Assembly (NCBI GenBank): GCA_028280605.1
Contig: JANQLL010000205.1
Span: 12,725-76,724, forward strand
DNA length: 64,000 bases
Direction of reading: 5' to 3'
Origin: Candidatus Gastranaerophilales bacterium
GTDB taxonomy: Bacteria; Cyanobacteriota; Vampirovibrionia; Gastranaerophilales; JANQFW01
Shown here piece after piece: positions 4,351 through 61,218 of the stretch (positions are counted from its first letter, which is position 1; every line of letters begins with the position of its first letter). The position numbers and the translations under genes were made by a program. Under the pieces are notes generated by a model. It did not search any database, was not told the DNA's origin, and saw only the letters and a list, made by a program, of their open reading frames with translations.

Positions 4351-4378
4351 TAAAGAATCTTTTCAACATAACCGATAT
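4351..4378 (+). promoter_or_regulatory. Sigma-28 (FliA)-type promoter candidate
   Basis: TAAAGaaT-N12-aCCGATAt, 45 nt upstream of the ATG at 4423. Confidence 0.5.
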
Positions 4379-4422
4379 AATAAATTAAGAGGTAGAGATA
4401 TGATAACTACGGAGGCAAAGCC

Positions 4423-4800
4423 ATGGGTTTAGCTGCGAGTCAAGGACGTTTTTTGCAATTAACAGCAAGAAAAAGTGATCTTGAATTTAGCGGTCAAAAT
4501 ATTAACCAAAGAAGAATGGCACTTACATACAGAGCTGAAGCTATAAACACACAGCTTTATGAAAAGCAAATGGCTTTATATAATTCGGCTGAAATAGGCG
4601 ACTCTCCGTTCGTTGATATCACTACACCTGAAATAGAAGCTTTATTAAGCCAGATAAATATATTTCATGATATGGACAGACAATTAGAAATTGAATTAAA
4701 AAACATTGATACTCAACAACAAGCAGTACAAACAGAAATTGATGCTGTAAACAAAGTAATTGATAAAAACATTGATATGACTTTCAAAACATTCGCATAA
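4423..4800 (+). CDS. Hypothetical coiled-coil protein, paralog of 6487..6822
   Basis: 125 aa with a GGAGG SD. It has an N-terminal MGLAASQGRFLQLTARKSDLEF motif and heptad-like C-terminal half. It shares the MGL..Q.R...L architecture with ORF 6487. Confidence 0.65.
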   Translation: MGLAASQGRFLQLTARKSDLEFSGQNINQRRMALTYRAEAINTQLYEKQMALYNSAEIGDSPFVDITTPEIEALLSQINIFHDMDRQLEIELKNIDTQQQAVQTEIDAVNKVIDKNIDMTFKTFA

Positions 4801-4845
4801 ATAACAAAACTAGGGTTTAGAATTGAGAAGAGGGAATTAGGAAAA

Positions 4846-5721
4846 ATGGCATATAAATACGATCACTTGATAGTAATCGCAAATAAGTATGGATTGGCCG
4901 GTCTTAACGCTAAAGGTGAATTGTTTGAAACATACGATAAACTAAGAGATTTGACAGCTGGTGGTGCAGCAATTGCAGGATCAGGCTTTGGTGGTGCCTC
5001 TCAATTTCTAATTAATTTAGCACAAATGATGGCTCCTTCTTCTTTCATGCCGATTTTGGGAGCCAATCAAACATTAAATATTCCAGGAACCTCTTATTAT
5101 TCTCCTGCTTTAACAGGTGGTGTTTCAATGGCACCTTTAAGCAATTCTTCTTTTGGGCTATCAGAGTTATCAAAACATCCAAGCTTTCCTACTGGCAAAG
5201 CGGCTAATGTTGTTCCAATGGCAGTTGGTGCATTGGGAGGATCTCTTTTATATGGCATTGGAAGTCAATTATCAGATTTATCAAATGATGATTATACGAT
5301 TGATGGCAGTCTGACCGGTCAAGCAGCTGCTATTGTTAGTAGTGATACTTTAGCTAACATAGCAGGAATGGGAACAGGTTTAGCTACAACAAAAAAAGGT
5401 GCTCGATCTTTTTTATTACCTACAGCCGGTATTATAGCAGGTGTTGGTAGTATGATTGCATCTGTAGCACCATATTTTGGTCCGTTTGGTATAATTGGCG
5501 GACTTGCAGGTAATATGCTAAACGGCTATGGTGGTGCAACACTAAGGGCTTATCAACAGGCAACCGGCAGAATTATAAATAATGCTGATGCTATCTTAAC
5601 AGCAAAAATTAAAAATATTGAAACAACAGTTAAACAGCTTGATGTACAGGGCAATATTGTAAGAAAAATGCTTAAAGAATCTATTGATGGAGATTCCAAG
5701 GCAATGCAATCAATGTTATAA
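4846..5721 (+). CDS. Hypothetical Gly/Ala-rich protein with glycine-zipper-like hydrophobic segments
   Basis: 291 aa with a GGGAATTAGGA SD region. Segments such as AGIIAGVGSMIASVAPYFGPFGIIGGLAG resemble glycine zippers. It starts 45 nt after ORF 4423, so it is probably co-transcribed. Confidence 0.6.
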   Translation: MAYKYDHLIVIANKYGLAGLNAKGELFETYDKLRDLTAGGAAIAGSGFGGASQFLINLAQMMAPSSFMPILGANQTLNIPGTSYYSPALTGGVSMAPLSNSSFGLSELSKHPSFPTGKAANVVPMAVGALGGSLLYGIGSQLSDLSNDDYTIDGSLTGQAAAIVSSDTLANIAGMGTGLATTKKGARSFLLPTAGIIAGVGSMIASVAPYFGPFGIIGGLAGNMLNGYGGATLRAYQQATGRIINNADAILTAKIKNIETTVKQLDVQGNIVRKMLKESIDGDSKAMQSML

Positions 5722-6154
5722 TCTTATAGAGTCAATTGGAGATAATATAACATGAAGCCTAGTCTCAGACTTTATATACGTTCATTGCAAACTATTTTAT
5801 TTTTTAATAATCCTTTTATAAAAATAATTATTCTACTTTTTAAAATATGTCATGACTCTTTTTATTTTAAAAGTAAGTCATATAAAATTAGAAAAAATAT
5901 ATATGAAAATACTAAAAAAATGGAAAAGGCAAAAAAAATGCTAAATAAGCCATATAAAGATCGTAGTACGATTAATTTTTTAAGATAAAGCTCTCTATCT
6001 TGTTAAATTTTTAATTTAATCTTAAAAAAAATAATATTAAGCTTGTAAAGTTATTTATTGGTCTTTGTAAATTTCAACTATTAATTTGTTTTTATATAAT
6101 TAGAAGTAGTAATATGATTATGTGTAATCACGTTGTCGTTCAGGAGAAAAGTAA

Positions 6155-6442
6155 ATGAGTATAGCTCACGTAGTAATAGATGCAGCAAAAATGAATGTAT
6201 ACAATACTCTTTCTTTTATAACAATGACTATTAGATACTTTAAAAAGACAAGACCTTTTGAAAGTATGATATATAATATGATAATGAGCATTCAACAATT
6301 TATAAATATGAGACAAGAATCCAAAATGGCTAAGTATAGAATGAATCATTTGATGTACAGATTAAATCAAATGGAAGAAGTCATAGAGGGCAATAATCCG
6401 CATAATTTTCTGGGAGGATTTAACATCAACAGACTTCAATAA
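6155..6442 (+). CDS. Hypothetical protein (95 aa)
   Basis: AGGAGA SD 8 nt upstream, and it immediately precedes ORF 6487. An AT-rich antisense ORF overlaps it, so coding status is uncertain. Confidence 0.35.
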   Translation: MSIAHVVIDAAKMNVYNTLSFITMTIRYFKKTRPFESMIYNMIMSIQQFINMRQESKMAKYRMNHLMYRLNQMEEVIEGNNPHNFLGGFNINRLQ

Positions 6443-6486
6443 ATAAATTAAAAATATAAAATATTTTTTAATAAGGGGAGGATAAA

Positions 6487-6822
6487 ATGGGATTATTAAC
6501 AGGTCAGGATCGGCTAATATATTTAAAGCTGTACAAGAATCAACTGGAATATAAAATTCAGCTAATTACGCAGACTCAATTACAGTTATCTCAAAACGTA
6601 ATGGAGTTTGAGACTTTGGTTGGTAGTGAACTGGAAGTTGATTCGCCAGAGGTAAAACTATTGATGGCAAAACAACAGAAGTTAAAACAAATTGAGAAGA
6701 AGCTAGATGTCGCAGTAACAAGATATCAAAACTCATTGAAAGCTGTAAATCAAGAGATCGAATCAGCTCAACGACTTGTAGATCACGAAATAAAACAGTC
6801 GTTTAGCTATCAAGTAGGCTAA
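6487..6822 (+). CDS. Hypothetical coiled-coil protein, paralog of 4423..4800
   Basis: 111 aa with a GGGGAGG SD. It has an N-terminal MGLLTGQDRLIYLKLYKNQLEY motif and a coiled-coil-like remainder. Confidence 0.6.
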   Translation: MGLLTGQDRLIYLKLYKNQLEYKIQLITQTQLQLSQNVMEFETLVGSELEVDSPEVKLLMAKQQKLKQIEKKLDVAVTRYQNSLKAVNQEIESAQRLVDHEIKQSFSYQVG

Positions 6823-7001
6823 TAAATAATTAAATTAATTTGTAATAATCCTGTTTGTTAATAAAATTTGACAATCCTTATTTTGCTGAAAATTATTAAT
6901 GAAAACACTTTCATTATAAGTAACAAAGAGAAAATATTTACGTCTAAAATATTAAGTTAGTAAAAATTGGGTATTTTATTATGAGAGGCATAAAATTATA
7001 A

Positions 7002-7617
7002 GAATATGAAGAAATAACCATAGTTGCACTGCGTAAATATCATCCTATAGCTAAAGTTAGAGAAAGAGCCCACGCAATAGAACTTTTAAATATGGGAATA
7101 AAAAGAATAGAAGTAGCTAAAACTTTGAAAAGAAGGAAAGATACAATATCTAAATGGACAGTAAGCTATAATGAATATGGAATAGCAGGACTTTTTGATG
7201 AAAAAAGATCTGGCAGACCAAGAGAGGTTACGGATGAAATAAAGGATAAAATTGTAGAAATAGCTGAATCAAAAGAAACTTGTACCAAAAATTCAATCAA
7301 AACAGCTATAGAAGAAGAATTTCGTGTTAAGTTTCATATTGATACCGTCAGGTATCATTTAAAAAAAAAGAAGGTTATGTCTACAAAAGAACCCGAAAAA
7401 GCCTAAAATATAAAAGAAATGAAACTCTTTTTAATAAAGCGAAAGAAGAAGGTATATTTTTATATTTTATACCACCTTATAGTCCTGAATTAAATCTTAT
7501 AAGAGAATAAATGGCATACATTAAAATATCACTCTATGCCCAAAAGGAATTTTGACAATTTAAATGACTTAGAATCAGCTATAAACCAAGGTATCACATA
7601 CTTGAATCATAAGACGT
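7002..7617 (+). pseudogene. Decayed IS630-family transposase (HTH part intact, catalytic core deleted, C-terminal fragments in other frames)
   Basis: The frame opens after a stop at 6999 with no in-frame ATG until 7092. The sequence LFDEKRSGRPRE is typical of the IS630 N-terminal HTH. Downstream frames carry a broken FIPPYSPELNLI block, matching the IS630 LPPYSPELNPIE motif. Confidence 0.75.
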
Positions 7618-48567: not shown

Positions 48568-49260
48568 TTAGAAAGACCTAAGCGGACTTGGACCGCCATA
48601 CATTGGACTTGAATAACCTGATTGAGAACCACCCATTGGATATCCGCCTCCTGCCGATTGTAATGATGAAAAACTCAGACCATGTTGAGGTGGTCCCCAA
48701 CTACCAGTTTCAATATAATTTCTTATTTGTGCAGCTTCTTGCATTTGGGAAGCTTGATGTATTTGTTGTTGTTGAGCGTAAGCAGCTTGCATTTGTTGCT
48801 GTTGTTGCATCATTGCAGTCTGTTGTTCTGCATATGACTTGCCAAAAATCGCCTGCCCCATCTTATTACCTAGCCAATCGCCTCCCATGCCCAAGGTCAT
48901 ACCTGTGCCCATAGATGCAAAATTGGCTTTTGTAAAAAAGCCTCCTTTACCTCCAGGTACATATCCCATCGCAATAGAACCACCCAACGTTGCCATACCA
49001 ACTCTACAAAATGACCTGCCTAACTGAGCACCAAAATCTCCATTCTGATAGGCCTGTATTAATGCAGGAATTTCAAATGCAACAGGGAGAGCCATAGCAA
49101 ATACGGGAGTATTCATGAAACCTTGATTTACTTTGGTTAAAAAACCTCCTCCATTTGTCGCAGCCTTTGATACAGATTTAGTTGCTGCAGATCCGGCACT
49201 CTTTCCGGAGCCTTTCAATAAATCATCAATAGTTGTGGAAAATATCTTTCCTATTCCCAT
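48568..49260 (-). CDS. Hypothetical Gly-rich membrane protein with poly-Q and G/S/Y-rich C-terminus
   Basis: 230 aa. Glycine-zipper-like segments (GMATLGGSIAMGYVPGG, MGTGMTLGMGG), a MMQQQQQMQAAYAQQQQ run, and a GGGYPMGGSQSGYSSPMYGG tail. Confidence 0.6.
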   Translation of the reverse strand: MGIGKIFSTTIDDLLKGSGKSAGSAATKSVSKAATNGGGFLTKVNQGFMNTPVFAMALPVAFEIPALIQAYQNGDFGAQLGRSFCRVGMATLGGSIAMGYVPGGKGGFFTKANFASMGTGMTLGMGGDWLGNKMGQAIFGKSYAEQQTAMMQQQQQMQAAYAQQQQIHQASQMQEAAQIRNYIETGSWGPPQHGLSFSSLQSAGGGYPMGGSQSGYSSPMYGGPSPLRSF

Positions 49261-49443
49261 TTTTCACCTTCCCATCTTCCTCTTGAAGATAAAACATTCC
49301 CAATTTTATAAACACAATTCCTCCTCAATAATTGCTTATTTATTATAAAGACTTATTAAAAAACTTATTTTTTTAACCCCAAGAACAGTAATAACAAAGA
49401 AAAATATTATATAAAGATATATTAAGGTTTGACCCTTCTAAAC

Positions 49444-49470
49444 TAAAGTTTTTTATAAGGTAAACGATAA
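49444..49470 (+). promoter_or_regulatory. Sigma-28-type promoter of candidate sRNA 1
   Basis: TAAAGTTT-N11-aaCGATAA. Confidence 0.5.
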
Positions 49471-49477
49471 ATATACT

Positions 49478-49535
49478 ATAAGATACCCAAACCTCCTCCC
49501 CAAGTCTGGTAGCCGCCCAAAATAGCGGCTTTTTT
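49478..49535 (+). ncRNA. Candidate small RNA 1 (about 58 nt) with C-rich single-stranded motif and terminator
   Basis: ...ACCCAAACCUCCUCCCCAAGUCUGGUA-GCCGC-ccaaaaua-GCGGC-UUUUUU. The 5' end is inferred from the promoter spacing. Confidence 0.5.
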
Positions 49536-49567
49536 ATTTGCTTTAAAAAAAAATTTTAAAAAAAGGC

Positions 49568-49594
49568 TAAAGTTTTAAAATAATATGCCGATTA
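49568..49594 (+). promoter_or_regulatory. Sigma-28-type promoter of candidate sRNA 2
   Basis: TAAAGTTT-N11-GCCGATtA, a 15/16 match to the TAAAGTTT-N11-GCCGATAA consensus. Confidence 0.6.
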
Positions 49595-49601
49595 TAATAA
49601 T

Positions 49602-49664
49602 ATAGCCAATATACCCCAATCTCTTCCCCAAGTCTGGTAGCCGCCCAAAAAAGCGGCTTTTTTT
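49602..49664 (+). ncRNA. Candidate small RNA 2 (about 63 nt), tandem duplicate of sRNA 1
   Basis: ...CCCCAAUCUCUUCCCCAAGUCUGGUA-GCCGC-ccaaaaaa-GCGGC-UUUUUUU. The 3' 40 nt are nearly identical to sRNA 1. Confidence 0.55.
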
Positions 49665-49725
49665 ATTGGATAAAAAATTTAAAAGAACAAATTAAAAAAG
49701 ACCGTTTAAGGTCTTTATAAAAAAA

Positions 49726-49811
49726 TGCCCTGGGCCAGACTTGAACTGGCACGAGGTTTTAACCCCATTGGATTTTAAGTCCAACGCGTCTACCGGTTCC
49801 GCCACCAGGGC
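49726..49811 (-). tRNA. tRNA-Leu (anticodon UAA), class II with long variable arm
   Basis: Manual fold: acceptor GCCCUGG/CCAGGGC, anticodon loop CUUAAAA, a long variable arm and T loop GUUCAAGUC. It is followed by the hairpin AAAGACC-ttaaac-GGTCTTT-TTT at 49696..49720. Confidence 0.9.
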
Positions 49812-54224: not shown

Positions 54225-55535
54225 TTAAGCATTTTTGAACCAAACATCGTCAACTCTTTGTTCTTTTCCTGCGCCATCCGTATATGTTCCAACTTGTCTA
54301 TGTTGAACATCACCGGTAGCAGCTTGTTCTTTATATCCTTTTGTATTAATTGTTTTTATATCATTTCCAAGTGCTTCAGGGTTAGTAACGTTATCTTCGC
54401 TAATTAAGCCTAATTCACCTTTTCCGTCTTTTTGCAGTGCTTGGTTAAACAATTGAGCGTTAACTACTCCTTTGTCATCAATAACATCCAGCCCCGATGC
54501 TTTTTCTGCACTCTGAGCAACTTGATTTAACGCATCAAAGCCATTTGCGGCCTCAACAGGCTTGTTTGTATACGGATCAACTGTTTTATCTCCAAATACT
54601 TCTGTTCCGTCAATTTTACCGTTTTTATTTACATCGCCCATTGTAAGCATTTTGTCACCGCCAACAGCCGCACCATCAGCTTTGCCATCTCCATTTATAT
54701 CAACGCCTTGCCCCTGTTGGGCACTAACTTTACCATCTTTATTTCTATCAAGTATTAACGGTGAACCTGTATCATAATCGCCATTTACTGTTGATACACC
54801 ATAACTGTCAGTACTGACTGTGCCATCATCTACTTCTAAATTGTTATTTCCATCTTCTACTTTTACAACTGTTTTATAGTCATCATCCTTTCTATGTTTG
54901 TACAAATGATATCTGTTATCATCTTTTCCTTCTGCAATAAGATATTCAGGCGCACCATTTTTAGCATCTCCGGTTAAATCGTTGCTTAGCGCATATTCTT
55001 TTTCATCTCCGGTAAGCTTGTCTATCAACGGACTATATCCCGTGCCAGTAGTTGTAGTATCGTTAGTAGTACCACCAGTCGTTGTATCAGTACCAGTTCC
55101 TGTTGTTCCTCCGCCGGTTGTTGTATCGTTACCGGTACCTGTTGTACCTCCACCGGTTGTTGTATCATTACCGCTTATCGTACTGTTGCCACCAATTCCG
55201 CCGAATAAGGCACTTAAATCAAAATTACTACCTGAGTTTACACTTGTATTTCCTTGAACAACATTAGTTCCACCCAGATTTGTATTTGATTGATTTTGAA
55301 ATAATGAATCACCAATGCTATTATTTGCTTGAACAACATTAGCTCCGCCAAAATTTGTATTCAATTGATTTTGAAATAATGAACCTAATGAGTTTCCAAT
55401 ACTATTGTTTGCTTGAGCAACATTAGCTCCGCCAAAATTTTGATTCATTTGGTTAAGACTTTTATTTAATTGTTGAAAACTTGACTTTAGCTTATTGGAA
55501 TATAACTTAGATAAGTCCCCCATAGAAATAGTCAT
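54225..55535 (-). CDS. Array paralog P1: repeat-rich N-terminal half plus conserved C-terminal EF-hand-like Ca-binding domain
   Basis: 436 aa with no signal peptide and a GAGGAGAG SD. The C-terminus SPLILDRNKDGKVSAQQGQGVDINGDGKADG...GDVNKNGKIDGTEVFGDKTVDPYTN...VDDVWFKNA is shared with P2-P4. Confidence 0.85.
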   Translation of the reverse strand: MTISMGDLSKLYSNKLKSSFQQLNKSLNQMNQNFGGANVAQANNSIGNSLGSLFQNQLNTNFGGANVVQANNSIGDSLFQNQSNTNLGGTNVVQGNTSVNSGSNFDLSALFGGIGGNSTISGNDTTTGGGTTGTGNDTTTGGGTTGTGTDTTTGGTTNDTTTTGTGYSPLIDKLTGDEKEYALSNDLTGDAKNGAPEYLIAEGKDDNRYHLYKHRKDDDYKTVVKVEDGNNNLEVDDGTVSTDSYGVSTVNGDYDTGSPLILDRNKDGKVSAQQGQGVDINGDGKADGAAVGGDKMLTMGDVNKNGKIDGTEVFGDKTVDPYTNKPVEAANGFDALNQVAQSAEKASGLDVIDDKGVVNAQLFNQALQKDGKGELGLISEDNVTNPEALGNDIKTINTKGYKEQAATGDVQHRQVGTYTDGAGKEQRVDDVWFKNA

Positions 55536-55784
55536 TAATTCTCTCCTCTTTTCTTCTCTCTCTTAATTATGTCTCTCTTTTAAATTTATCTATCAGTAAA
55601 AATATTCACAAAAATAATCTTCTCTAAATAATTCATTATTAATGTTCTTGCTAAATTATTTGATTTAATTATTTTTTTTAAAACTTCTCTCTCTAAGGTG
55701 AAAAATCTGCATAATTATACTTTATAATAAAAGCATTCTATCTCTGGTTATACTAAACGTTCTAATATTCTCAATTTAATCTCT

Positions 55785-55825
55785 TATAAATATATAAAAA
55801 CAATAAATCATAAAAAATTGCTATA
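55785..55825 (-). promoter_or_regulatory. Paralog-array upstream motif, copy 2 (upstream of P1)
   Basis: tataaatatataaaaacaataaatcataaaaaattgctata. Confidence 0.55.
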
Positions 55826-55864
55826 TATTTTTAAATCTGGTAAATAAGTATGATTAACAAAAAA

Positions 55865-55903
55865 ACTTAGAAAGATAAGCCCTCCTCGTTTTGCGGAGGG
55901 CCT
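55865..55903 (-). terminator. Terminator of P2
   Basis: GCCCTCC-tcgttttgc-GGAGGGC hairpin, with a U-rich tail on the minus strand. Confidence 0.65.
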
Positions 55904-55926
55904 TATATATAAACTAAGCAAGAAAT

Positions 55927-57045
55927 TTAAGCATGTTTAAACCAAACATCATTAACTTTTTGCTGGTTTCCTTGAGTATCTATATATGATCCAAGTTGTC
56001 TATGTTGAATATTACCCGTAGCATTTTGCTCTTTATAGCCTTTTGTATTTATATATGCAACATCTCCAAGAGCTTCAGGCTTAGTAACGTTATTGTCACT
56101 TATTAAGCCTAAATTTCCTTTTTTGGCTTGCTTAAGAGCTTGGTCAAGCTTTTGAACATCCACTTTTCCATTTGGATCTACAATGTTCAGTCCAGTGGCT
56201 TTTGAAGCACTTAGAGCAACTTCTCTGAGTGCTTCAAAGCCGTTACGTGCATTAATAGGTTTATTAGTGAACGGATTTACAGTTTTATTTCCAAATACTT
56301 CTGTTCCATCTATCTTACCGTTGCCATTTCTGTCACCTAAGGTTAACATCTTATCTCCGCCGCTAGCTGCACCATCAGCTCTGCCATCTCCGTTTATATC
56401 AACGCCCTGTCCATGTCGAGCACTAACTTTACCATCTTTATTTGTATCAAGTATTAATGGAGAACCGGTTTTAGAGCCTTGGCCTGCTTTTGATACGCCG
56501 TGTTCATCAGTTGTGATATTTTTAGGCTTTAACTTATTACTTCCTTTTGGCAATTTGGTTACAGCCTTATACTTTCCACCATTACCTTTATATAAGTGCT
56601 GCTTACCATCTTTGCCTTTAGCTATAAGATACAGAGGCTCACCTTTGTTATTCTTAGCCGTTAAGTCAACGCTTAAAGCGATTTCTTTTTCTTTTGCGCT
56701 AAGTTGATCTATTAACGGGCTATGTCCAGGTTTAGGTTTTGCAGGCTCTGTTGGACTTGGTTTAGAACTAGGTGCCTTGTGGTTACTGCCACAAAGTAAA
56801 TTTATGATGATATTTATATTTATGTTAGTAAAATCTAATTTTGCAGGAGGTTCTTTAGCTCCTGATAAATTACCAATATTTATAGTTGGTTTAAATACAT
56901 TTGTGATTCCCGCATTTTTGTTAAAAAGTGTTTTGCCGCTACCATAGCTACTATTACTTTGATTAACATTTTTTCCCCCAATATTTTGATTTAGCTGTCT
57001 CACAATTGATGAGGGATCAGCAATATTGATCCTGGTGATACTCAT
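55927..57045 (-). CDS. Array paralog P2
   Basis: 372 aa. The family N-terminus is MSITRINIADPSSIVRQLNQNIGGKNVNQ, with the boxes FKPTINIGN and NININIIINLLC. The conserved C-terminal Ca-binding domain ends VNDVWFKHA. Confidence 0.85.
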   Translation of the reverse strand: MSITRINIADPSSIVRQLNQNIGGKNVNQSNSSYGSGKTLFNKNAGITNVFKPTINIGNLSGAKEPPAKLDFTNININIIINLLCGSNHKAPSSKPSPTEPAKPKPGHSPLIDQLSAKEKEIALSVDLTAKNNKGEPLYLIAKGKDGKQHLYKGNGGKYKAVTKLPKGSNKLKPKNITTDEHGVSKAGQGSKTGSPLILDTNKDGKVSARHGQGVDINGDGRADGAASGGDKMLTLGDRNGNGKIDGTEVFGNKTVNPFTNKPINARNGFEALREVALSASKATGLNIVDPNGKVDVQKLDQALKQAKKGNLGLISDNNVTKPEALGDVAYINTKGYKEQNATGNIQHRQLGSYIDTQGNQQKVNDVWFKHA

Positions 57046-57123
57046 TAGAACTCTCCTCTTCGTCTCTTCTTTCCCGTGCTTGGGCTTATATTTCTATATT
57101 CATTTCTCTATAATTTTTTTCAA

Positions 57124-57168
57124 CTGGCCTATTTATATAAAAACAATGTAGTATATAAAATTGCTATA
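57124..57168 (-). promoter_or_regulatory. Paralog-array upstream motif, copy 3 (upstream of P2)
   Basis: ctggcctatttatataaaaacaatgtagtatataaaattgctata. Its distal end is part of a perfect 28-bp palindrome at 57161..57188. Confidence 0.55.
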
Positions 57169-57216
57169 AAAAATATTTTTTATAGCAATAAACAAATAAA
57201 TTCTAATTAAAATCTT

Positions 57217-57249
57217 TAAAAAAAGTCCTCCCAATTAAGAGGAGGACTC
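57217..57249 (-). terminator. Terminator of P3
   Basis: AGTCCTCC-caattaaga-GGAGGACT with a flanking A/T run. Confidence 0.7.
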
Positions 57250-57281
57250 TATCTATAAATAAAGCACGTTATTGATTTTAA

Positions 57282-58550
57282 TTAAGCATTTTTGAACCAA
57301 ACATCATTAACTTTTTGTTTTTGTCCGCTGCCGTCTGTATAAGATCCAAGCTGTCTGTGTTGAACATTACCGCTAAGCGGACCGCGATCTGTATATCCTT
57401 GAGTATCTACGGACTTTACATCACCAAGAGCTTCAGGTCTTGTAGTGTTATTTCCGCTAATCATTCCTAATTTACCCTTTTTAGTAGCCTGAAGAGCCTG
57501 ATTAAGTTTTTGCATATCAACTTTACCGTTTGGATCAACTATTTGCATGCCTGTAGCTTGTTGAGCACTTTGTGCAACTTTTCTAAGCGCTTCAAATCCA
57601 TTCTTTGCATTAATAGGCTTGTTAGTGAACGGATCTACCGTTTTATCCCCAAAGACTTCTGTTCCATCAATTTTACCGTTTCCATTTCTATCGCCTAAAG
57701 TAAGCATTTTATCTCCGCCGGTAGCTGCACCATCAGCTCTGCCATCGCCATTTACATCTACGCCCATTCCATGTTGCGCACTAACTTTACCGTCTTTATT
57801 TGTATCAAGTATTAATGGTGAACTTGTTTTTGAACCTGAGCCGGCTTGCGATACACCATGTTTATCAGTTGTGATATTTTTAGGTTTTAATTTTCTGCTG
57901 CCATCAGGTGCACTTCCAACAGGTCTGTACTTTCCAGGTTCCTTTTGGTGATACAAACGATTCTTGCCATCTTTACCTTTTCCAATAAGATATTTAGGCT
58001 TTCCATCAGGTCCTTTTTCTTTTAAATTAAGACCTCTGGCAAGCTTTCTATCTTGTGGACTAAGTTTATTTAATAACGGTGAGGTTCTTCTGCGTCTTCT
58101 AATAGTTCTGGGTTTATTTGTTGTACCGGTTGGAGATCCTGTATTACCCGTATTACCCGTATTACCGGTATTGCCAGTATTACCTGTATTACCAGTTTGG
58201 TCTTTAAGACCTTTACAAAGTAAATTTATAATTAAATTTATATTTATAGTTGGGGATTTACCATCACCTGATTGATTTGGTAATCCTCCAGTATTCTTAG
58301 AAGTATCATTATTATTTGTTAATCCGCCAATATTTATAGAGGGCGAATTACCTACACCTGCTTGATTTTGCAATCCTCCAATGTTTATAGTCGGCTTAAA
58401 TACATTTTTGAATTTAGGTCCTCTATGCTTATGACCGTGAGCCTGATTATGATCAGGACCGACAATATTTTGGTTAACAGTCTTGCCCCCAGTATTTTTA
58501 TTTATCAATTTTACTAAAGGCGATTGATTAGCCGTTGAAATATTAATCAT
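57282..58550 (-). CDS. Array paralog P3
   Basis: 422 aa. It has the family N-terminus, a (GNT)x6 linker and an RRRR patch. The C-terminal domain is nearly identical to that of P4. Confidence 0.85.
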   Translation of the reverse strand: MINISTANQSPLVKLINKNTGGKTVNQNIVGPDHNQAHGHKHRGPKFKNVFKPTINIGGLQNQAGVGNSPSINIGGLTNNNDTSKNTGGLPNQSGDGKSPTININLIINLLCKGLKDQTGNTGNTGNTGNTGNTGNTGSPTGTTNKPRTIRRRRRTSPLLNKLSPQDRKLARGLNLKEKGPDGKPKYLIGKGKDGKNRLYHQKEPGKYRPVGSAPDGSRKLKPKNITTDKHGVSQAGSGSKTSSPLILDTNKDGKVSAQHGMGVDVNGDGRADGAATGGDKMLTLGDRNGNGKIDGTEVFGDKTVDPFTNKPINAKNGFEALRKVAQSAQQATGMQIVDPNGKVDMQKLNQALQATKKGKLGMISGNNTTRPEALGDVKSVDTQGYTDRGPLSGNVQHRQLGSYTDGSGQKQKVNDVWFKNA

Positions 58551-58680
58551 TAAACTCTCCTCTTCGTCTCTTATCCAGTCTTGCGCTCTAAATCTCTAGT
58601 AAATCTTATTTACTTAAGTTCTCTCTATATAATTTTGCTAATCTTATTAAATCTCTCTCTATATATATTCTCTCTAAGAA

Positions 58681-58725
58681 CTTGCCTATCTATATAAAAA
58701 CAAACAAAGGTATAAAATTGCTATA
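58681..58725 (-). promoter_or_regulatory. Paralog-array upstream motif, copy 4 (upstream of P3)
   Basis: cttgcctatctatataaaaacaaacaaaggtataaaattgctata. Confidence 0.55.
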
Positions 58726-58803
58726 TAACATATTTTTTTAATTAATAAATTAAACTAATAAAGGCATAATCTACTACCTGGTAAGATTTTAAGTGTCGTA
58801 CAT

Positions 58804-58833
58804 AAAAAAAAATCCCCCAAAAATAGGAGGATT
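58804..58833 (-). terminator. Terminator of short array gene S1
   Basis: AATCCCCC-aaaaat-AGGAGGATT (one mismatch) with a flanking A run. Confidence 0.6.
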
Positions 58834-58896
58834 ATATATTTGCAACTAAGAATATTATTATTCTGCTTGAAGAAAAGTACCTTTGAGTTTATCTGA

Positions 58897-59418
58897 TTAA
58901 GCCATTTGAGGAAATATATTTATATTTACATTGTTATCCCGGCAGGCTTTTGCAGGCAAGTTTTGTGGCTGAGAATCACTACAAAGGCAAGGGGAATTTT
59001 GAAATATATTTATATTTACATTGTTACCCTGACAGGCTTTTGAAGGGGAAGTTGGGGAATTTTGAGATTGTATATTATTATTAGTGCCAGATCCATTTTG
59101 AAATATATTTGCATTATCATTATTGTTAGTATTATTACTGCCGTTATTATTATTAATATTGATATTATTATTGTTTACATTAAAAATATTATTAATATCC
59201 TGTTTTGGAGTTGATTTGCTTGGAGTAGAAAGACCTTTAATAAGATTCTTCAATCCTGATTTTAATGGTGAATTAGCAGGCTTTTTCTTGGGTTTAAATA
59301 TATTTTTACCACTAAAAACAGGTTTCTTTCTAGTAGGCTTTTTTCGCCTTGGAGGTCTTTTTCTGCCCATAAATTTCTTAAAAATGTTTGTATTAAAAAC
59401 TTTCTTGCCACCGCACAT
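58897..59418 (-). CDS. Array short member S1: basic N-terminus, Asn-rich, repeated NIF/NINI boxes
   Basis: The start is set at MCGGKK (GAGGAGAA SD 6 nt upstream). KKPVFSGKNIFKPKKKP resembles the family FKNVFKP box. It has no C-terminal Ca-binding domain. Confidence 0.6.
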   Translation of the reverse strand: MCGGKKVFNTNIFKKFMGRKRPPRRKKPTRKKPVFSGKNIFKPKKKPANSPLKSGLKNLIKGLSTPSKSTPKQDINNIFNVNNNNININNNNGSNNTNNNDNANIFQNGSGTNNNIQSQNSPTSPSKACQGNNVNINIFQNSPCLCSDSQPQNLPAKACRDNNVNINIFPQMA

Positions 59419-59676
59419 TAATATTCTCCTCAATCTCTCTGTTTATTGCTAACGCTATTATTAATTATTATTTATGGCATGATTAATGCCAATCATATGC
59501 TAACATTGTTAATTAATATTATTTTTATAATATTGACACTAATAACATGCCAATATTAATATTGAATATGCTAAAATTATTATTAATACTCTCCTTGATA
59601 ATATTTCTATCTCTTATTAGAAGTATGCTAACATTATATTAATATTGTTTATGTAACTCTCTATATCTTTAAAATA

Positions 59677-59721
59677 CTTGCTTATTTATATAAAAACAAA
59701 CTAATCTATAAAATTGCTATA
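59677..59721 (-). promoter_or_regulatory. Paralog-array upstream motif, copy 5 (upstream of S1)
   Basis: cttgcttatttatataaaaacaaactaatctataaaattgctata. Confidence 0.55.
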
Positions 59722-59725
59722 CTAA

Positions 59726-59822
59726 CTCAAAAATACTTTTCAGATTATTCAATCGTGTTAAATCTGATAAAATAGGCTATATTCTGAAAAGAGTAATCAA
59801 AAATTTAATTGAGAACCTGTAT
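59726..59822 (-). repeat. Dispersed TTTCAGATTA hairpin element, copy g (reverse orientation)
   Basis: ctcaaaaatacttttcagattattcaatcg...ttctgaaaagagtaatcaaaaatttaattgagaacctgtat. It abuts motif copy 5. Confidence 0.85.
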
Positions 59823-59892
59823 ATATAGAATATTTTTTGAATTGATAAATTTTAATAAAAAACAGCTTTAAATAAAAAATAAAATAAAGCTC

Positions 59893-59921
59893 AAAAAAAT
59901 CCTCCCAAGAATAGGAGGATT
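59893..59921 (-). terminator. Terminator of P4
   Basis: AATCCTCC-caagaat-AGGAGGATT with a flanking A7 run. Confidence 0.75.
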
Positions 59922-59955
59922 ATATATTATAAATTAAGCACGTTATTGATTTTAA

Positions 59956-61218
59956 TTAAGCATTTTTGAACCAAACATCATTAACTTTTTGTTTTTGTCC
60001 GCTGCTGTCTGTATAAGACCCAAGCTGTCTGTGCTGAACATTACCGCTAAGCTGGCCGCGATCTGTATATCCTTGAGTATCTATGGATTTAACATCACCA
60101 AGAGCTTCAGGTCTTGTAGTGTTATTGCCACTAATCATTCCTAACTTGCCTTTTCCGGCTGATTCAAGAGCTTGATTAAGTTTTTGCACATCAACTTTAC
60201 CATTAGCATCAACTATTTGCATACCTGTTGCCTGTTGAGCGCTTTGTGCTACTTGTCTGAGCGCTTCAAATCCATTTTTTGCATTAATAGGTTGGTTTGT
60301 AAACGGATCAACAGTTTTATCTCCAAATACTTCAGTTCCATCAATTTTACCATTGCCGTTTCTATCACCCATTGTAAGCATCTTATCTCCGCCAACAGCT
60401 GCGCCATCAGCTCTGCCATCTCCGTTAACATCCACGCCCATACCATGTTGAGCACTAACTTTACCGTCTTTATTTGTATCAAGTATTAATGGAGAACTCG
60501 TTTTAGAACCTGAGCCGGCTTGCGATACACCATGTTTATCAGTTGTGATACCTTTAGGCTCTAATTCATTACTGCCGTCCGGCGCTTTGTTAATAGCTTT
60601 GTATTCACCTGGCTTTTCTTGCTGGTACAAACGAGGTTTACCATCTTTACCTTTACCAATAAGATATTTAGGCTTGCCATCAGACCCTTTTGCTTTTAAA
60701 TCAAGCCCCTTAGCTCTATTTCTATCTTCCGGACTAAGCGACTTTAATAGCGGTGAACCACTACTTACAGGTCGTCTCGTAGTTACAGGCTTTTTAGCAA
60801 TGTCACTTGTTGAGCCTGTATCACCTGCTGAGCCACTACCACTTGTTGATGATGGTTCTTTACCTTTCAGAGCCAATATTAAATTTATAATTAAATTTAT
60901 GTTTATAGTAGGTGAACCGCTTGAATCTGATTGATTTGTTGCTCCACCAGAATTTTGAGTACCATTATTATTTGTTAATCCCCCAATACTAATAGTTGGT
61001 TTAAATACATTTTTGAAAACAGGTTTTCTACCTGTATGATTAAGCTTGTGTCCGCCAATATGCTTGTACTTAGGTCCGACATGCCTATGTTTGTGACCAA
61101 CATGATTGTGATTATTCCCATTGATAGTTTGACTAATATTATTGCCCCCAGTATTTTTATTTATTTGTTTCACGTTTGAAAATGGGGCAGATGAAATCTG
61201 AATTCTAGCTGCGCTCAT
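59956..61218 (-). CDS. Array paralog P4
   Basis: 420 aa. It has the family N-terminus (MSAARIQISSAPFSNVKQINKNTGGNNISQ), an His-rich patch, the ININLIINL box and the conserved C-terminal domain. Confidence 0.85.
   Translation of the reverse strand: MSAARIQISSAPFSNVKQINKNTGGNNISQTINGNNHNHVGHKHRHVGPKYKHIGGHKLNHTGRKPVFKNVFKPTISIGGLTNNNGTQNSGGATNQSDSSGSPTININLIINLILALKGKEPSSTSGSGSAGDTGSTSDIAKKPVTTRRPVSSGSPLLKSLSPEDRNRAKGLDLKAKGSDGKPKYLIGKGKDGKPRLYQQEKPGEYKAINKAPDGSNELEPKGITTDKHGVSQAGSGSKTSSPLILDTNKDGKVSAQHGMGVDVNGDGRADGAAVGGDKMLTMGDRNGNGKIDGTEVFGDKTVDPFTNQPINAKNGFEALRQVAQSAQQATGMQIVDANGKVDVQKLNQALESAGKGKLGMISGNNTTRPEALGDVKSIDTQGYTDRGQLSGNVQHRQLGSYTDSSGQKQKVNDVWFKNA

Follow-up and report, generated by a model that had tools for sequence, protein, structure and literature searches.

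The question raised by this locus is what is encoded by two direct repeats lying side by side in a 64,000-nucleotide (nt) stretch of a Candidatus Gastranaerophilales genome (contig JANQLL010000205.1, positions 12,725 to 76,724), hereafter called the window. An earlier reading of the letters, referred to here as the original prediction, had taken the repeats for a tandem pair of small RNA (sRNA) genes. As far as sequence analysis goes, that interpretation is supported, and the two units belong to a real, conserved and previously undescribed sRNA family of a known regulator kind. The reading preferred here, to which a probability of roughly 60% is assigned, takes them for sibling genes of a family shared by Gastranaerophilales and other Melainabacteria, whose small regulatory RNAs work in trans and would act by anti-Shine-Dalgarno (anti-SD) repression under the flagellar sigma factor. 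In plain terms, these RNAs probably silence a few mRNAs by occupying the ribosome-binding sites while that sigma factor is active.

The sigma-28-type promoter, the C/U-rich stretch and the terminator that had been described for each tandem unit were all present (Table 1). The distance from one −35 element to the next was 124 nt, and the register given by a repeat finder was 128 nt; the latter program reported a 70-nt pair with 86% identity, the 128-nt units aligned at 83% identity, and an identical block of 36 nt (TCCCCAAGTCTGGTAGCCGCCCAAAA) was common to both copies. Moreover, a 19-mer (CCCCAAGTCTGGTAGCCGC) occurred exactly twice in the window and never in 100 shuffles, even when up to three mismatches were allowed. 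A pattern scan found seven terminator-like sites against 1.2 expected in shuffles, the terminators of both units being among them. Each terminator hairpin has six pairs, five of which are G-C, and its U-tract appears on the plus strand only, the minus strand having no T-run; in both units a GC-rich hairpin thus stands directly before a U-tract on the transcribed strand, as in intrinsic terminators. The 3′ module that had been described was found, but it begins ~30 nt past the −10 and ~50 nt past the −35 element, and not 60 nt as had been proposed. As claimed, no open reading frame (ORF) of at least 20 amino acids (aa) lies inside either unit, a single 29-aa minus-strand ORF reaching the last two bases. 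Furthermore, no co-directional gene follows the units: the next gene is a convergent tRNA-Leu with a terminator of its own, so that the units lead into no gene.

Table 1. Coordinates of the tandem sRNA candidates and of the adjoining genes in the window.
Feature	Positions	Strand	Details
Copy 1 promoter	49444..49470	+	−35 TAAAGTTT (49444-49451), 11-nt spacer, −10 AACGATAA (49463-49470); read directly
Copy 1 predicted RNA, ~58 nt	49478..49535	+	first base is the A of AUAAG, 8 nt past the −10
Copy 1 unpaired seed	49490-49501	+	AACCUCCUCCCC; linker AAGUCUGGUA (49502-49511)
Copy 1 seed and linker, as DNA	49490-49511	+	AACCTCCTCCCC-AAGTCTGGTA
Copy 1 terminator hairpin	49511-49530	+	followed by U6
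Copy 2 promoter	49568..49594	+	−35 TAAAGTTT (49568-49575), 11-nt spacer, −10 GCCGATTA (49587-49594); read directly
Copy 2 predicted RNA, ~63 nt	49602..49664	+	begins at AUAG; without 5′ hairpin
Copy 2 seed variant	49618-49629	+	AAUCUCUUCCCC; linker AAGUCUGGUA (49630-49639)
Copy 2 seed and linker, as DNA	49618-49639	+	AATCTCTTCCCC-AAGTCTGGTA
Copy 2 terminator hairpin	49639-49658	+	followed by U7
tRNA-Leu(UAA), convergent	49726..49811	-	own minus-strand terminator at 49716-49697; downstream boundary
Glycine-rich ORF, 230 aa, divergent upstream neighbour	48568..49260	-	no family match; same neighbour in L005 and L015

Relatives of the units were collected with two scans, and the related loci or contigs recovered for comparison are designated by L-numbers (L005, L015 and so on). 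A scan of one genome per species for exact matches to the 19-mer returned 18 loci, nearly all of them in metagenome-assembled genomes (MAGs) from gut and rumen labelled as Candidatus Gastranaerophilales, Melainabacteria or 'Cyanobacteria bacterium'. Upstream of the 19-mer, all 18 carried the C/U-rich extension and a TAAAG...CGA promoter, although the query contained neither. When the recovered loci were searched with a profile, L005 and L015 yielded further tandem copies, in which the 19-mer shows a G-to-A change. In the second scan, of metagenomes, the pattern TCYTCCCC-N8-12-GCCGC-N3-10-CGGCTTTTT was used, with the linker left free in order to lower the ascertainment bias. Of the 120 loci that it gave, about 45 were accepted as true members on the basis of a regular expression for linker and terminator and an AT-rich context with the promoter; the others were GC-rich chance matches. 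The linker variants recovered in this way were AAGUCUAGUA (the commonest), AAGUCUGGUA, AAGUCUGACA, GAGUCUAGUU, AUAUCUAGUA and AAGUCAAGUA, five of the six keeping the UCU core, and the linker is therefore conserved but not invariant. Together, the two scans, which carried out the homologue search proposed in the original prediction, gave 59 distinct members, almost all from gut, rumen or environmental Melainabacteria. The C-rich segment, for which a lack of conservation in relatives had been set beforehand as the sign of a wrong prediction, proved to be conserved even where the search pattern did not demand it.

The members share one layout, consisting of a TAAAGnnn-N11-nnCGAnAn promoter (found in nearly all 59), a likely start ~8 nt downstream, an unpaired segment (A)ACCUCCUCCCC-AAGUCU(A/G)GUA of ~22 nt and a terminator, and the predicted RNAs of the relatives are 58-85 nt long. 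Related genomes have three to four copies each; the two relatives of the window represented by L005 and L015 have three and four, on separate contigs, and a tandem pair is also found in L086. Five further near-identical genes of the copy 2 type lie on other contigs of two related genomes. With Rfam 15 at the gathering threshold, only two tRNAs were found in the whole window, and relaxing the threshold to E ≤10 for window positions 49250-49730 and for L003 6140-6250 gave only sub-threshold noise (AaHKsRNA82, ctRNA and others). Literature searches on sRNAs of Melainabacteria or Gastranaerophilales returned nothing relevant and no description of this family. A phage or mobile-element origin was set aside, as no match was obtained among 2.9 million viral contigs. 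One locus, L011 (contig CAVCIU010000005.1), is labelled as a Methanobacteriaceae archaeon; its sRNA copy and flanks are near-identical to those of the melainabacterial loci L019, L037 and L113, and it is probably a mis-binned contig in that MAG.

The same tandem pair, flanked as in the window by the glycine-rich gene and the tRNA-Leu, was found in the two related MAGs represented by L005 and L015. In the alignment of the three genomes, the promoters and the transcribed parts were almost invariant, being as conserved as the tRNA, whereas the spacer between the copies and the stretch before the tRNA differed by insertions or deletions of up to ~300 nt. From the −10 element through the terminator, copy 2 was 100% identical to its counterparts in both MAGs except in the loop, and its promoter was identical in L007, L009 and L015; likewise, both the −35 and the −10 (AACGATAA) elements of copy 1 were kept in the L005 and L015 orthologues. 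Compared with these orthologues (L005 5986-6095 and L015 2119-2228, both on the minus strand), copy 1 of the window has lost 12 nt at 49478-49490 (ACCAAAAGGTC plus one more), a loss that removes the 5′ hairpin (GACCAAAAGGUC) present in them. Genes of the copy 2 type never carry this hairpin, which is therefore dispensable in this genus. An isolated CCCCAAG at 49377-49383 (plus strand), ~60 nt upstream of the copy 1 promoter and not conserved in L005 or L015, could be the relic of a third copy.

In the predicted folds of 48 distinct members, a single-stranded segment with the motif lay between a 5′ hairpin and a terminator hairpin. Between lineages, the 5′ hairpins were unrelated in sequence and yet paired, as in AAAACC-GAAA-GGUUUU, CAGGGG-GAAA-CCCCUG, GGAUAAGGA-UUCG-UCCUUAUC and GUAAAAG-GAAA-CUUUUAC. 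As MAFFT alignments failed to align this hairpin structurally, a covariance model limited to the hairpin's four innermost pairs was built from a seed of eight members and was used to align 66 matches (50 distinct), copy 1 of the window matching it with 61.2 bits. The four pairs were formed in 92% of cases and all four showed changes on both sides, one position being GC in 13, CG in 12, UA in 10 and AU in six sequences. The covariation score was 0.376, against 0.097 in shuffles (none of 500 reaching it) and at most 0.066 with a slid partner. Fitting the alignment to the model favours pairing, but the slid controls and the variety of pair types still speak for a real, strong signal. The terminator helix, which was off by one column in this alignment, held no informative variation, its 5′ arm having been specified in both search patterns.

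The description of a C/U-rich, anti-SD-like region left unpaired upstream of the terminator agrees with the predicted structures: the seed of copy 1 was unpaired in both the minimum-energy and the centroid structures, the mean unpaired probability of the seed was 0.85, and it was unpaired in nearly every minimum-energy fold of the members. A mini-helix of 3 bp (CCA/UGG) was predicted in the linker and is broken by the common G-to-A variant, so that the linker too is probably single-stranded. Within the conserved segment, ACCUCCUCCCC holds ACCUCCU, the anti-SD core of 16S rRNA, followed by CCCC. Copy 1 carries CCUCCUCCCC at 49492-49501, and copy 2 the variant UCUCUUCCCC with two C-to-U changes.

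As regards the promoter, TAAA-N15-GCCGATAA is the cross-phylum consensus of sigma-28/SigD. Copy 2 matches 15 and copy 1 matches 14 of its 16 positions, both with the 11-nt spacer, and the near-consensus element described in both copies was also kept in nearly all relatives. When the 100-nt upstream region of each member was scored by weighted match to TAAAGTTT-N11-GCCGATAA, with random windows from the same contigs as background, the members averaged 17.9 against 13.2 (standard deviation 1.4), and 71% of them exceeded the 99th percentile of the background. The score of the copy 2 promoter, 20.0, equalled the maximum among 3000 background windows. Elsewhere in ~450 kb of the same contigs, three motifs reached 18.5, all of them without the CGA core. 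A conserved (A/G)U(A/G)AG ~8 nt past the −10 is likely the transcription start, which agrees with the starts originally proposed near 49478 and 49602. Furthermore, a promoter of the same class was found at window position 4351 (TAAAGAAT-N12-ACCGATAT), ~45 nt upstream of ORF 4423-4800, and a perfect TAAAGTAT-N11-GCCGATAA was found upstream of its homologues (51-56% identity) in the distant Melainabacteria contigs L140, L141 and L144. As the same consensus precedes a protein-coding family, this promoter class is in use in the lineage, which is independent evidence that the motif works as a promoter type there.

The match to the consensus and its spacing suggest that the promoter is read by FliA, a reading that fits the reported presence of flagellar genes in most gut Melainabacteria (PMC3787301) and of flagella in many, though not all, of them (PMC3787301, PMC4040986). 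It is unlikely, although worth weighing, that the RNAs are base-pairing sRNAs whose promoter is read by another alternative sigma factor, of the extracytoplasmic function (ECF) type or of group 3 with a CGA/CGT −10 element, without any flagellar link. Five loci (L002, L004, L008, L014 and L084) with CGT or degenerate −35 elements would fit such a factor, as would the protein family with the same promoter, for which no flagellar role is known, and the many Gastranaerophilales that lack a full flagellar gene set (PMC4040986). The −35 element of ECF sigma factors typically contains AAC. No such element was found in these promoters, and TAAA-N15-GCCGATAA matches sigma-28/SigD in both sequence and spacing, which speaks against the other factors.

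Under the preferred reading, transcription would end at the GC hairpin and U-tract, giving RNAs of ~58 and ~63 nt, in which the terminator hairpin and, where it has not been lost as in both window copies, the 5′ hairpin would keep the ~22-nt segment single-stranded. As the ACCUCCU core is extended by CCCC, the first half of this segment would pair with unusually G-rich ribosome-binding sites (GGGGAGG...), and the 30S subunit would thereby be kept from binding a limited group of mRNAs during the late flagellar programme. The C-to-U changes of copy 2 would keep the pairing with G by wobble and gain pairing with A, so that the siblings would probably have overlapping, non-identical target sets. 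The anatomy, the conservation, the covariation, the unpaired seed and the orphan position of the genes are shown by the sequences; transcription, the identity of the sigma factor, the identity of the targets and the direction of regulation are what we infer here, and the occlusion of G-rich ribosome-binding sites is the most economical reading.

Candidate targets of this kind were rare, as GGGGAGG or GGGGAAGA within range of a start codon occurred at four initiation regions in ~450 kb of related contigs. In the 64-kb window, the only GGGGAGG Shine-Dalgarno (SD) site belongs to the 111-aa ORF 6487-6822 on the plus strand (AAGGGGAGGAUAAAAUG; SD AAGGGGAGGAU). When the start region of each ORF of at least 70 aa was paired with both copies, this ORF gave, with copy 1, the best of 194 predicted duplexes, at −22.9 kcal/mol against a mean of −9.9 (standard deviation 3.8). 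Moreover, it is an MGLAASQ-family paralogue (E 2e-9) of ORF 4423-4800, which has the sigma-28-type promoter, and its candidacy as a target is suggestive on this account. The SD sites GAAGAGGAGAG of a paralog array had originally been put forward as complementary to the C-rich stretch. They are indeed complementary, over 6-7 bp only, but ranked unremarkably among the 194 duplexes and were rejected as distinctive targets. The array itself (54225-61218, minus strand) comprises four ORFs of 372-436 aa, all with the purine-rich SD GAAGAGGAGAG or close variants; three of the four have weak, sub-threshold EF-hand matches, and the 436-aa ORF (54225-55535) has no Pfam match.

Several results weigh against the preferred reading. 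Both scans required part of the motif, and conservation of those bases is thus partly by construction; in addition, the 5′ hairpin found in most relatives is absent from both window copies. A tblastn search of the window and all fetched loci with the flagellin of B. subtilis gave no match; there was no fliA or flagellar gene in the window, no flagellin in any fetched locus and no flagellar gene seen near any copy, so that the sigma factor is assigned from the consensus alone; this result would also suit another sigma factor. Some Gastranaerophilales are reported without complete flagella (PMC4040986). Regarding the targets, the window and ~450 kb of related contigs were searched for sequences complementary to the 22-nt segment, whether exactly or by wobble. 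At high stringency, only the antisense strands of the sRNA genes themselves matched, and this search for extended complementarity identified no conserved target; 10-mer complements with G:U allowed gave uninformative noise. Finally, AAGUCURGUA, which forms the second half of the segment, does not resemble an anti-SD and is more conserved than a generic seed needs, a hint of a specific partner, RNA or protein. It may prolong the pairing with a particular target, or serve to bind a protein or an RNase.

These last points bear on the possibility that the RNA is real but acts mainly via a protein or the translation machinery, as a decoy of the 16S 3′ end or as a sponge for an RNA-binding protein or another sRNA. 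With ~22 conserved nt, the segment exceeds the 7-10 nt that a seed requires, the linker AAGUCU(A/G)GUA is conserved although it was left free in the search, and the lack of an extended complementary target would be expected of such a role, as would the identity of ACCUCCU with the 16S anti-SD core. Yfr1, which has a similar architecture, has also been discussed as a possible protein binder and cross-talks with Yfr2 (PMC2190773, PMC6778093). On the other hand, neither GGA-type CsrA motifs nor repeated binding sites are present, each RNA having a single motif, the CCCC extension confers pairing specificity for the rare GGGGAGG sites, and the sRNAs with unpaired C-rich motifs that have been studied pair with SD regions (PMC4615179, for the cuckoo RNAs). 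Taken together, action of this sort is considered rather improbable, and base pairing at ribosome-binding sites is retained as the preferred reading.

The genomic neighbourhood bears on whether the elements act in cis, as a leader or attenuator or as an antisense or terminator module for their neighbours, or are inert intergenic repeats or mobile-element relics. In favour of this, the element is multicopy and tandem. Moreover, in seven loci (L002, L003, L004, L006, L013, L016 and L018) a convergent gene has its stop codon next to the sRNA terminator or overlapping with it, with gaps from −6 to +28 nt. However, the downstream gene was convergent in most of the 23 loci first examined, most loci thus having no co-directional gene downstream, and the flanking genes varied between loci (EPSP-synthase family, sigma-70 family, methylase, pilin-like and several without a family). 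A leader role was rejected on account of these convergent downstream genes and unrelated neighbours, in agreement with the claim that the units are independent. Neither the separate terminator of the convergent tRNA in the window nor the restriction of the U-tract to the plus strand suits a cis-acting module, the compensatory changes in the 5′ hairpin and the conserved promoter are unexpected for inert repeats, and the scan of viral contigs was empty. A cis-acting or inert element is accordingly regarded as very improbable. As for the seven abutting loci, read-through of the convergent gene would yield a 3′ end perfectly complementary to the sRNA, with a built-in sponge or transcriptional interference as possible effects.

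Another feature of the neighbourhood is a 9-nt identity, CAAGUCUGG, between the sRNA linker (49502-49510, plus strand) and the T-arm of the neighbouring tRNA-Leu(UAA), read as RNA. In most members of the family the second-last G of this stretch is replaced by A, and the stretch and the tRNA are on opposite strands; a tRNA-derived origin or an attachment site was rejected on these grounds, and the identity is probably due to chance.

Regarding known RNAs, the original prediction had pointed to Yfr1 of cyanobacteria, an RNA of 54-69 nt with an ultraconserved unpaired undecamer, 5′-ACUCCUCACAC-3′ (PMC2190773), in which an unpaired segment of 16-20 nt lies between a 6-10-bp hairpin on the 5′ side and a GC-rich terminator on the 3′ side. 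The resemblance held for the architecture and for the host, as most melainabacterial members have the same order of 5′ stem-loop, unpaired C/U-rich motif and GC-rich terminator with U-tail, the sizes are similar, the motifs share A-C..UCCUC (ACUCCUCACAC vs. ACCUCCUCCCC), and the photosynthetic cyanobacteria that carry Yfr1 form the sister class of the host lineage. Specifically, most relatives have a 5′ hairpin of 4-12 bp, 22-28 unpaired nt and a terminator, and the window copies share the terminator and size but not the 5′ hairpin. Membership, in contrast, was not borne out: the Yfr1 11-mer had no match in the window with up to one mismatch and no exact match in the 139 loci, and the Rfam covariance model of Yfr1 had no match at E ≤10 in the same two intervals (49250-49730 and L003 6140-6250). 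In addition, the melainabacterial unpaired segment is longer, and the genes are multicopy or tandem under a sigma-28-type promoter, whereas Yfr1 is usually single-copy. Since the layout, with its unpaired A-C-(C)-UCCUC-rich motif, and the size class are the same and the host is a sister lineage, descent of both from the same ancestral RNA can be entertained, but is considered doubtful. If true, a Yfr1-type riboregulator would predate the split of photosynthetic and non-photosynthetic Cyanobacteriota, and in the flagellated branch it would have undergone duplication and come under the flagellar sigma factor.

A second likeness is with the cuckoo family of alpha-proteobacteria (CcsR1-4 / RSs0680, alpha-r14 and NfeR1), whose motif CCUCCUCCC is considered to be an anti-SD element (PMC4615179). 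Exactly this motif is present in copy 1 and in most relatives (copy 2 has a variant), and in both families the stems vary by compensatory change around a fixed motif and the copies are often multiple or adjacent. However, cuckoo RNAs consist of two to four adjacent hairpins with the motif in each loop (PMC4615179), whereas the melainabacterial RNAs have one motif, single-stranded between hairpins, in 48 of the 48 folded members. Phylum, promoter and genomic context all differ: cuckoo genes are found in alpha-proteobacterial hosts, often beside a DUF1127 gene, and no DUF1127 was found among the ten flanking proteins examined here, which had other domains or none. No cuckoo-type RNA was matched in Rfam at E ≤10 either, and the shared seed is most likely a case of convergence.

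The closest functional analogues, unrelated in sequence, would be the sigma-28-dependent sRNAs MotR, FliX, FlgO and UhpU of E. coli (PMC10578931) and CjNC1/CjNC4 and CJnc170 of Campylobacter jejuni (PMC4626219, PMC11187230). These share FliA-type promoters and a post-transcriptional action in or around the flagellar programme, and CjNC1 and CjNC4 are likewise near-identical paralogues (37/44 nt) with sigma-28 promoters (PMC4626219). They differ in having no similarity in sequence or structure to the melainabacterial RNAs, the E. coli ones being derived from untranslated regions and the melainabacterial ones free-standing, and in that their FliA dependence is experimental, while that of the melainabacterial family is deduced from the consensus. 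Unpaired C-rich motifs expected to occlude G-rich ribosome-binding sites are also found in C-rich-seed sRNAs of Gram-positive bacteria, namely RsaE/RoxS, LhrC1-5 and the mycobacterial 6C (PMC6486639). Unlike the present family, however, these have several CCCC/UCCC motifs in loops, and they belong to other phyla and other regulators. LhrC1-5 is likewise a set of sibling copies. None of these RNAs was matched in Rfam at E ≤10; for RsaE/RoxS in particular, the single non-loop motif and the melainabacterial rather than Firmicutes host set the units apart from it. From the comparisons with Yfr1, the cuckoo family and the sigma-28 sRNAs, the units are therefore placed in a new family of a known regulator kind.

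As far as the searches of Rfam and the literature show, no regulatory RNA has been described for Melainabacteria (Vampirovibrionia), which are uncultured, common in the guts of people and animals and the closest relatives of cyanobacteria. The family is mechanistically conventional and is a clean first sRNA candidate for this medically and evolutionarily interesting lineage, well defined by its conserved promoter, its covariation-supported structure and its fixed seed. It would be the third independent case of sRNAs in the sigma-28 tier, after those of Enterobacteria and Campylobacter, would indicate that the CCUCCUCCC anti-SD seed arises outside alpha-proteobacteria, and offers a way into the question whether RNAs of the Yfr1 type predate oxygenic photosynthesis. 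Given the several copies per genome and the 16S-like ACCUCCU core, it is conceivable, though considered doubtful, that the RNAs serve as an anti-SD mimic that retunes the translation of strong-SD mRNAs globally in the late flagellar stage.

Finally, the protein-coding gene with a promoter of this class in the window is part of a cassette (4351-5721, plus strand) in which ORF 4423-4800 (125 aa, MGLAASQGRFLQLTARKSDLEF...) is followed by a glycine-rich ORF of 291 aa. The two-gene arrangement is conserved, being also found in L140 and L141 (~5900-7260) and in L144 (~300-1130), with the perfect TAAAGTAT-N11-GCCGATAA in three lineages. The protein of ORF 4423-4800 has at least 590 homologues, few of which have source names, these being hypothetical or generic automatic ones; the organism labels shown are Melainabacteria or Cyanobacteriota, and none of the homologues has a Pfam or NCBIfam match. 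The cassette may belong, so far unrecognised, to the flagellar or late regulon.

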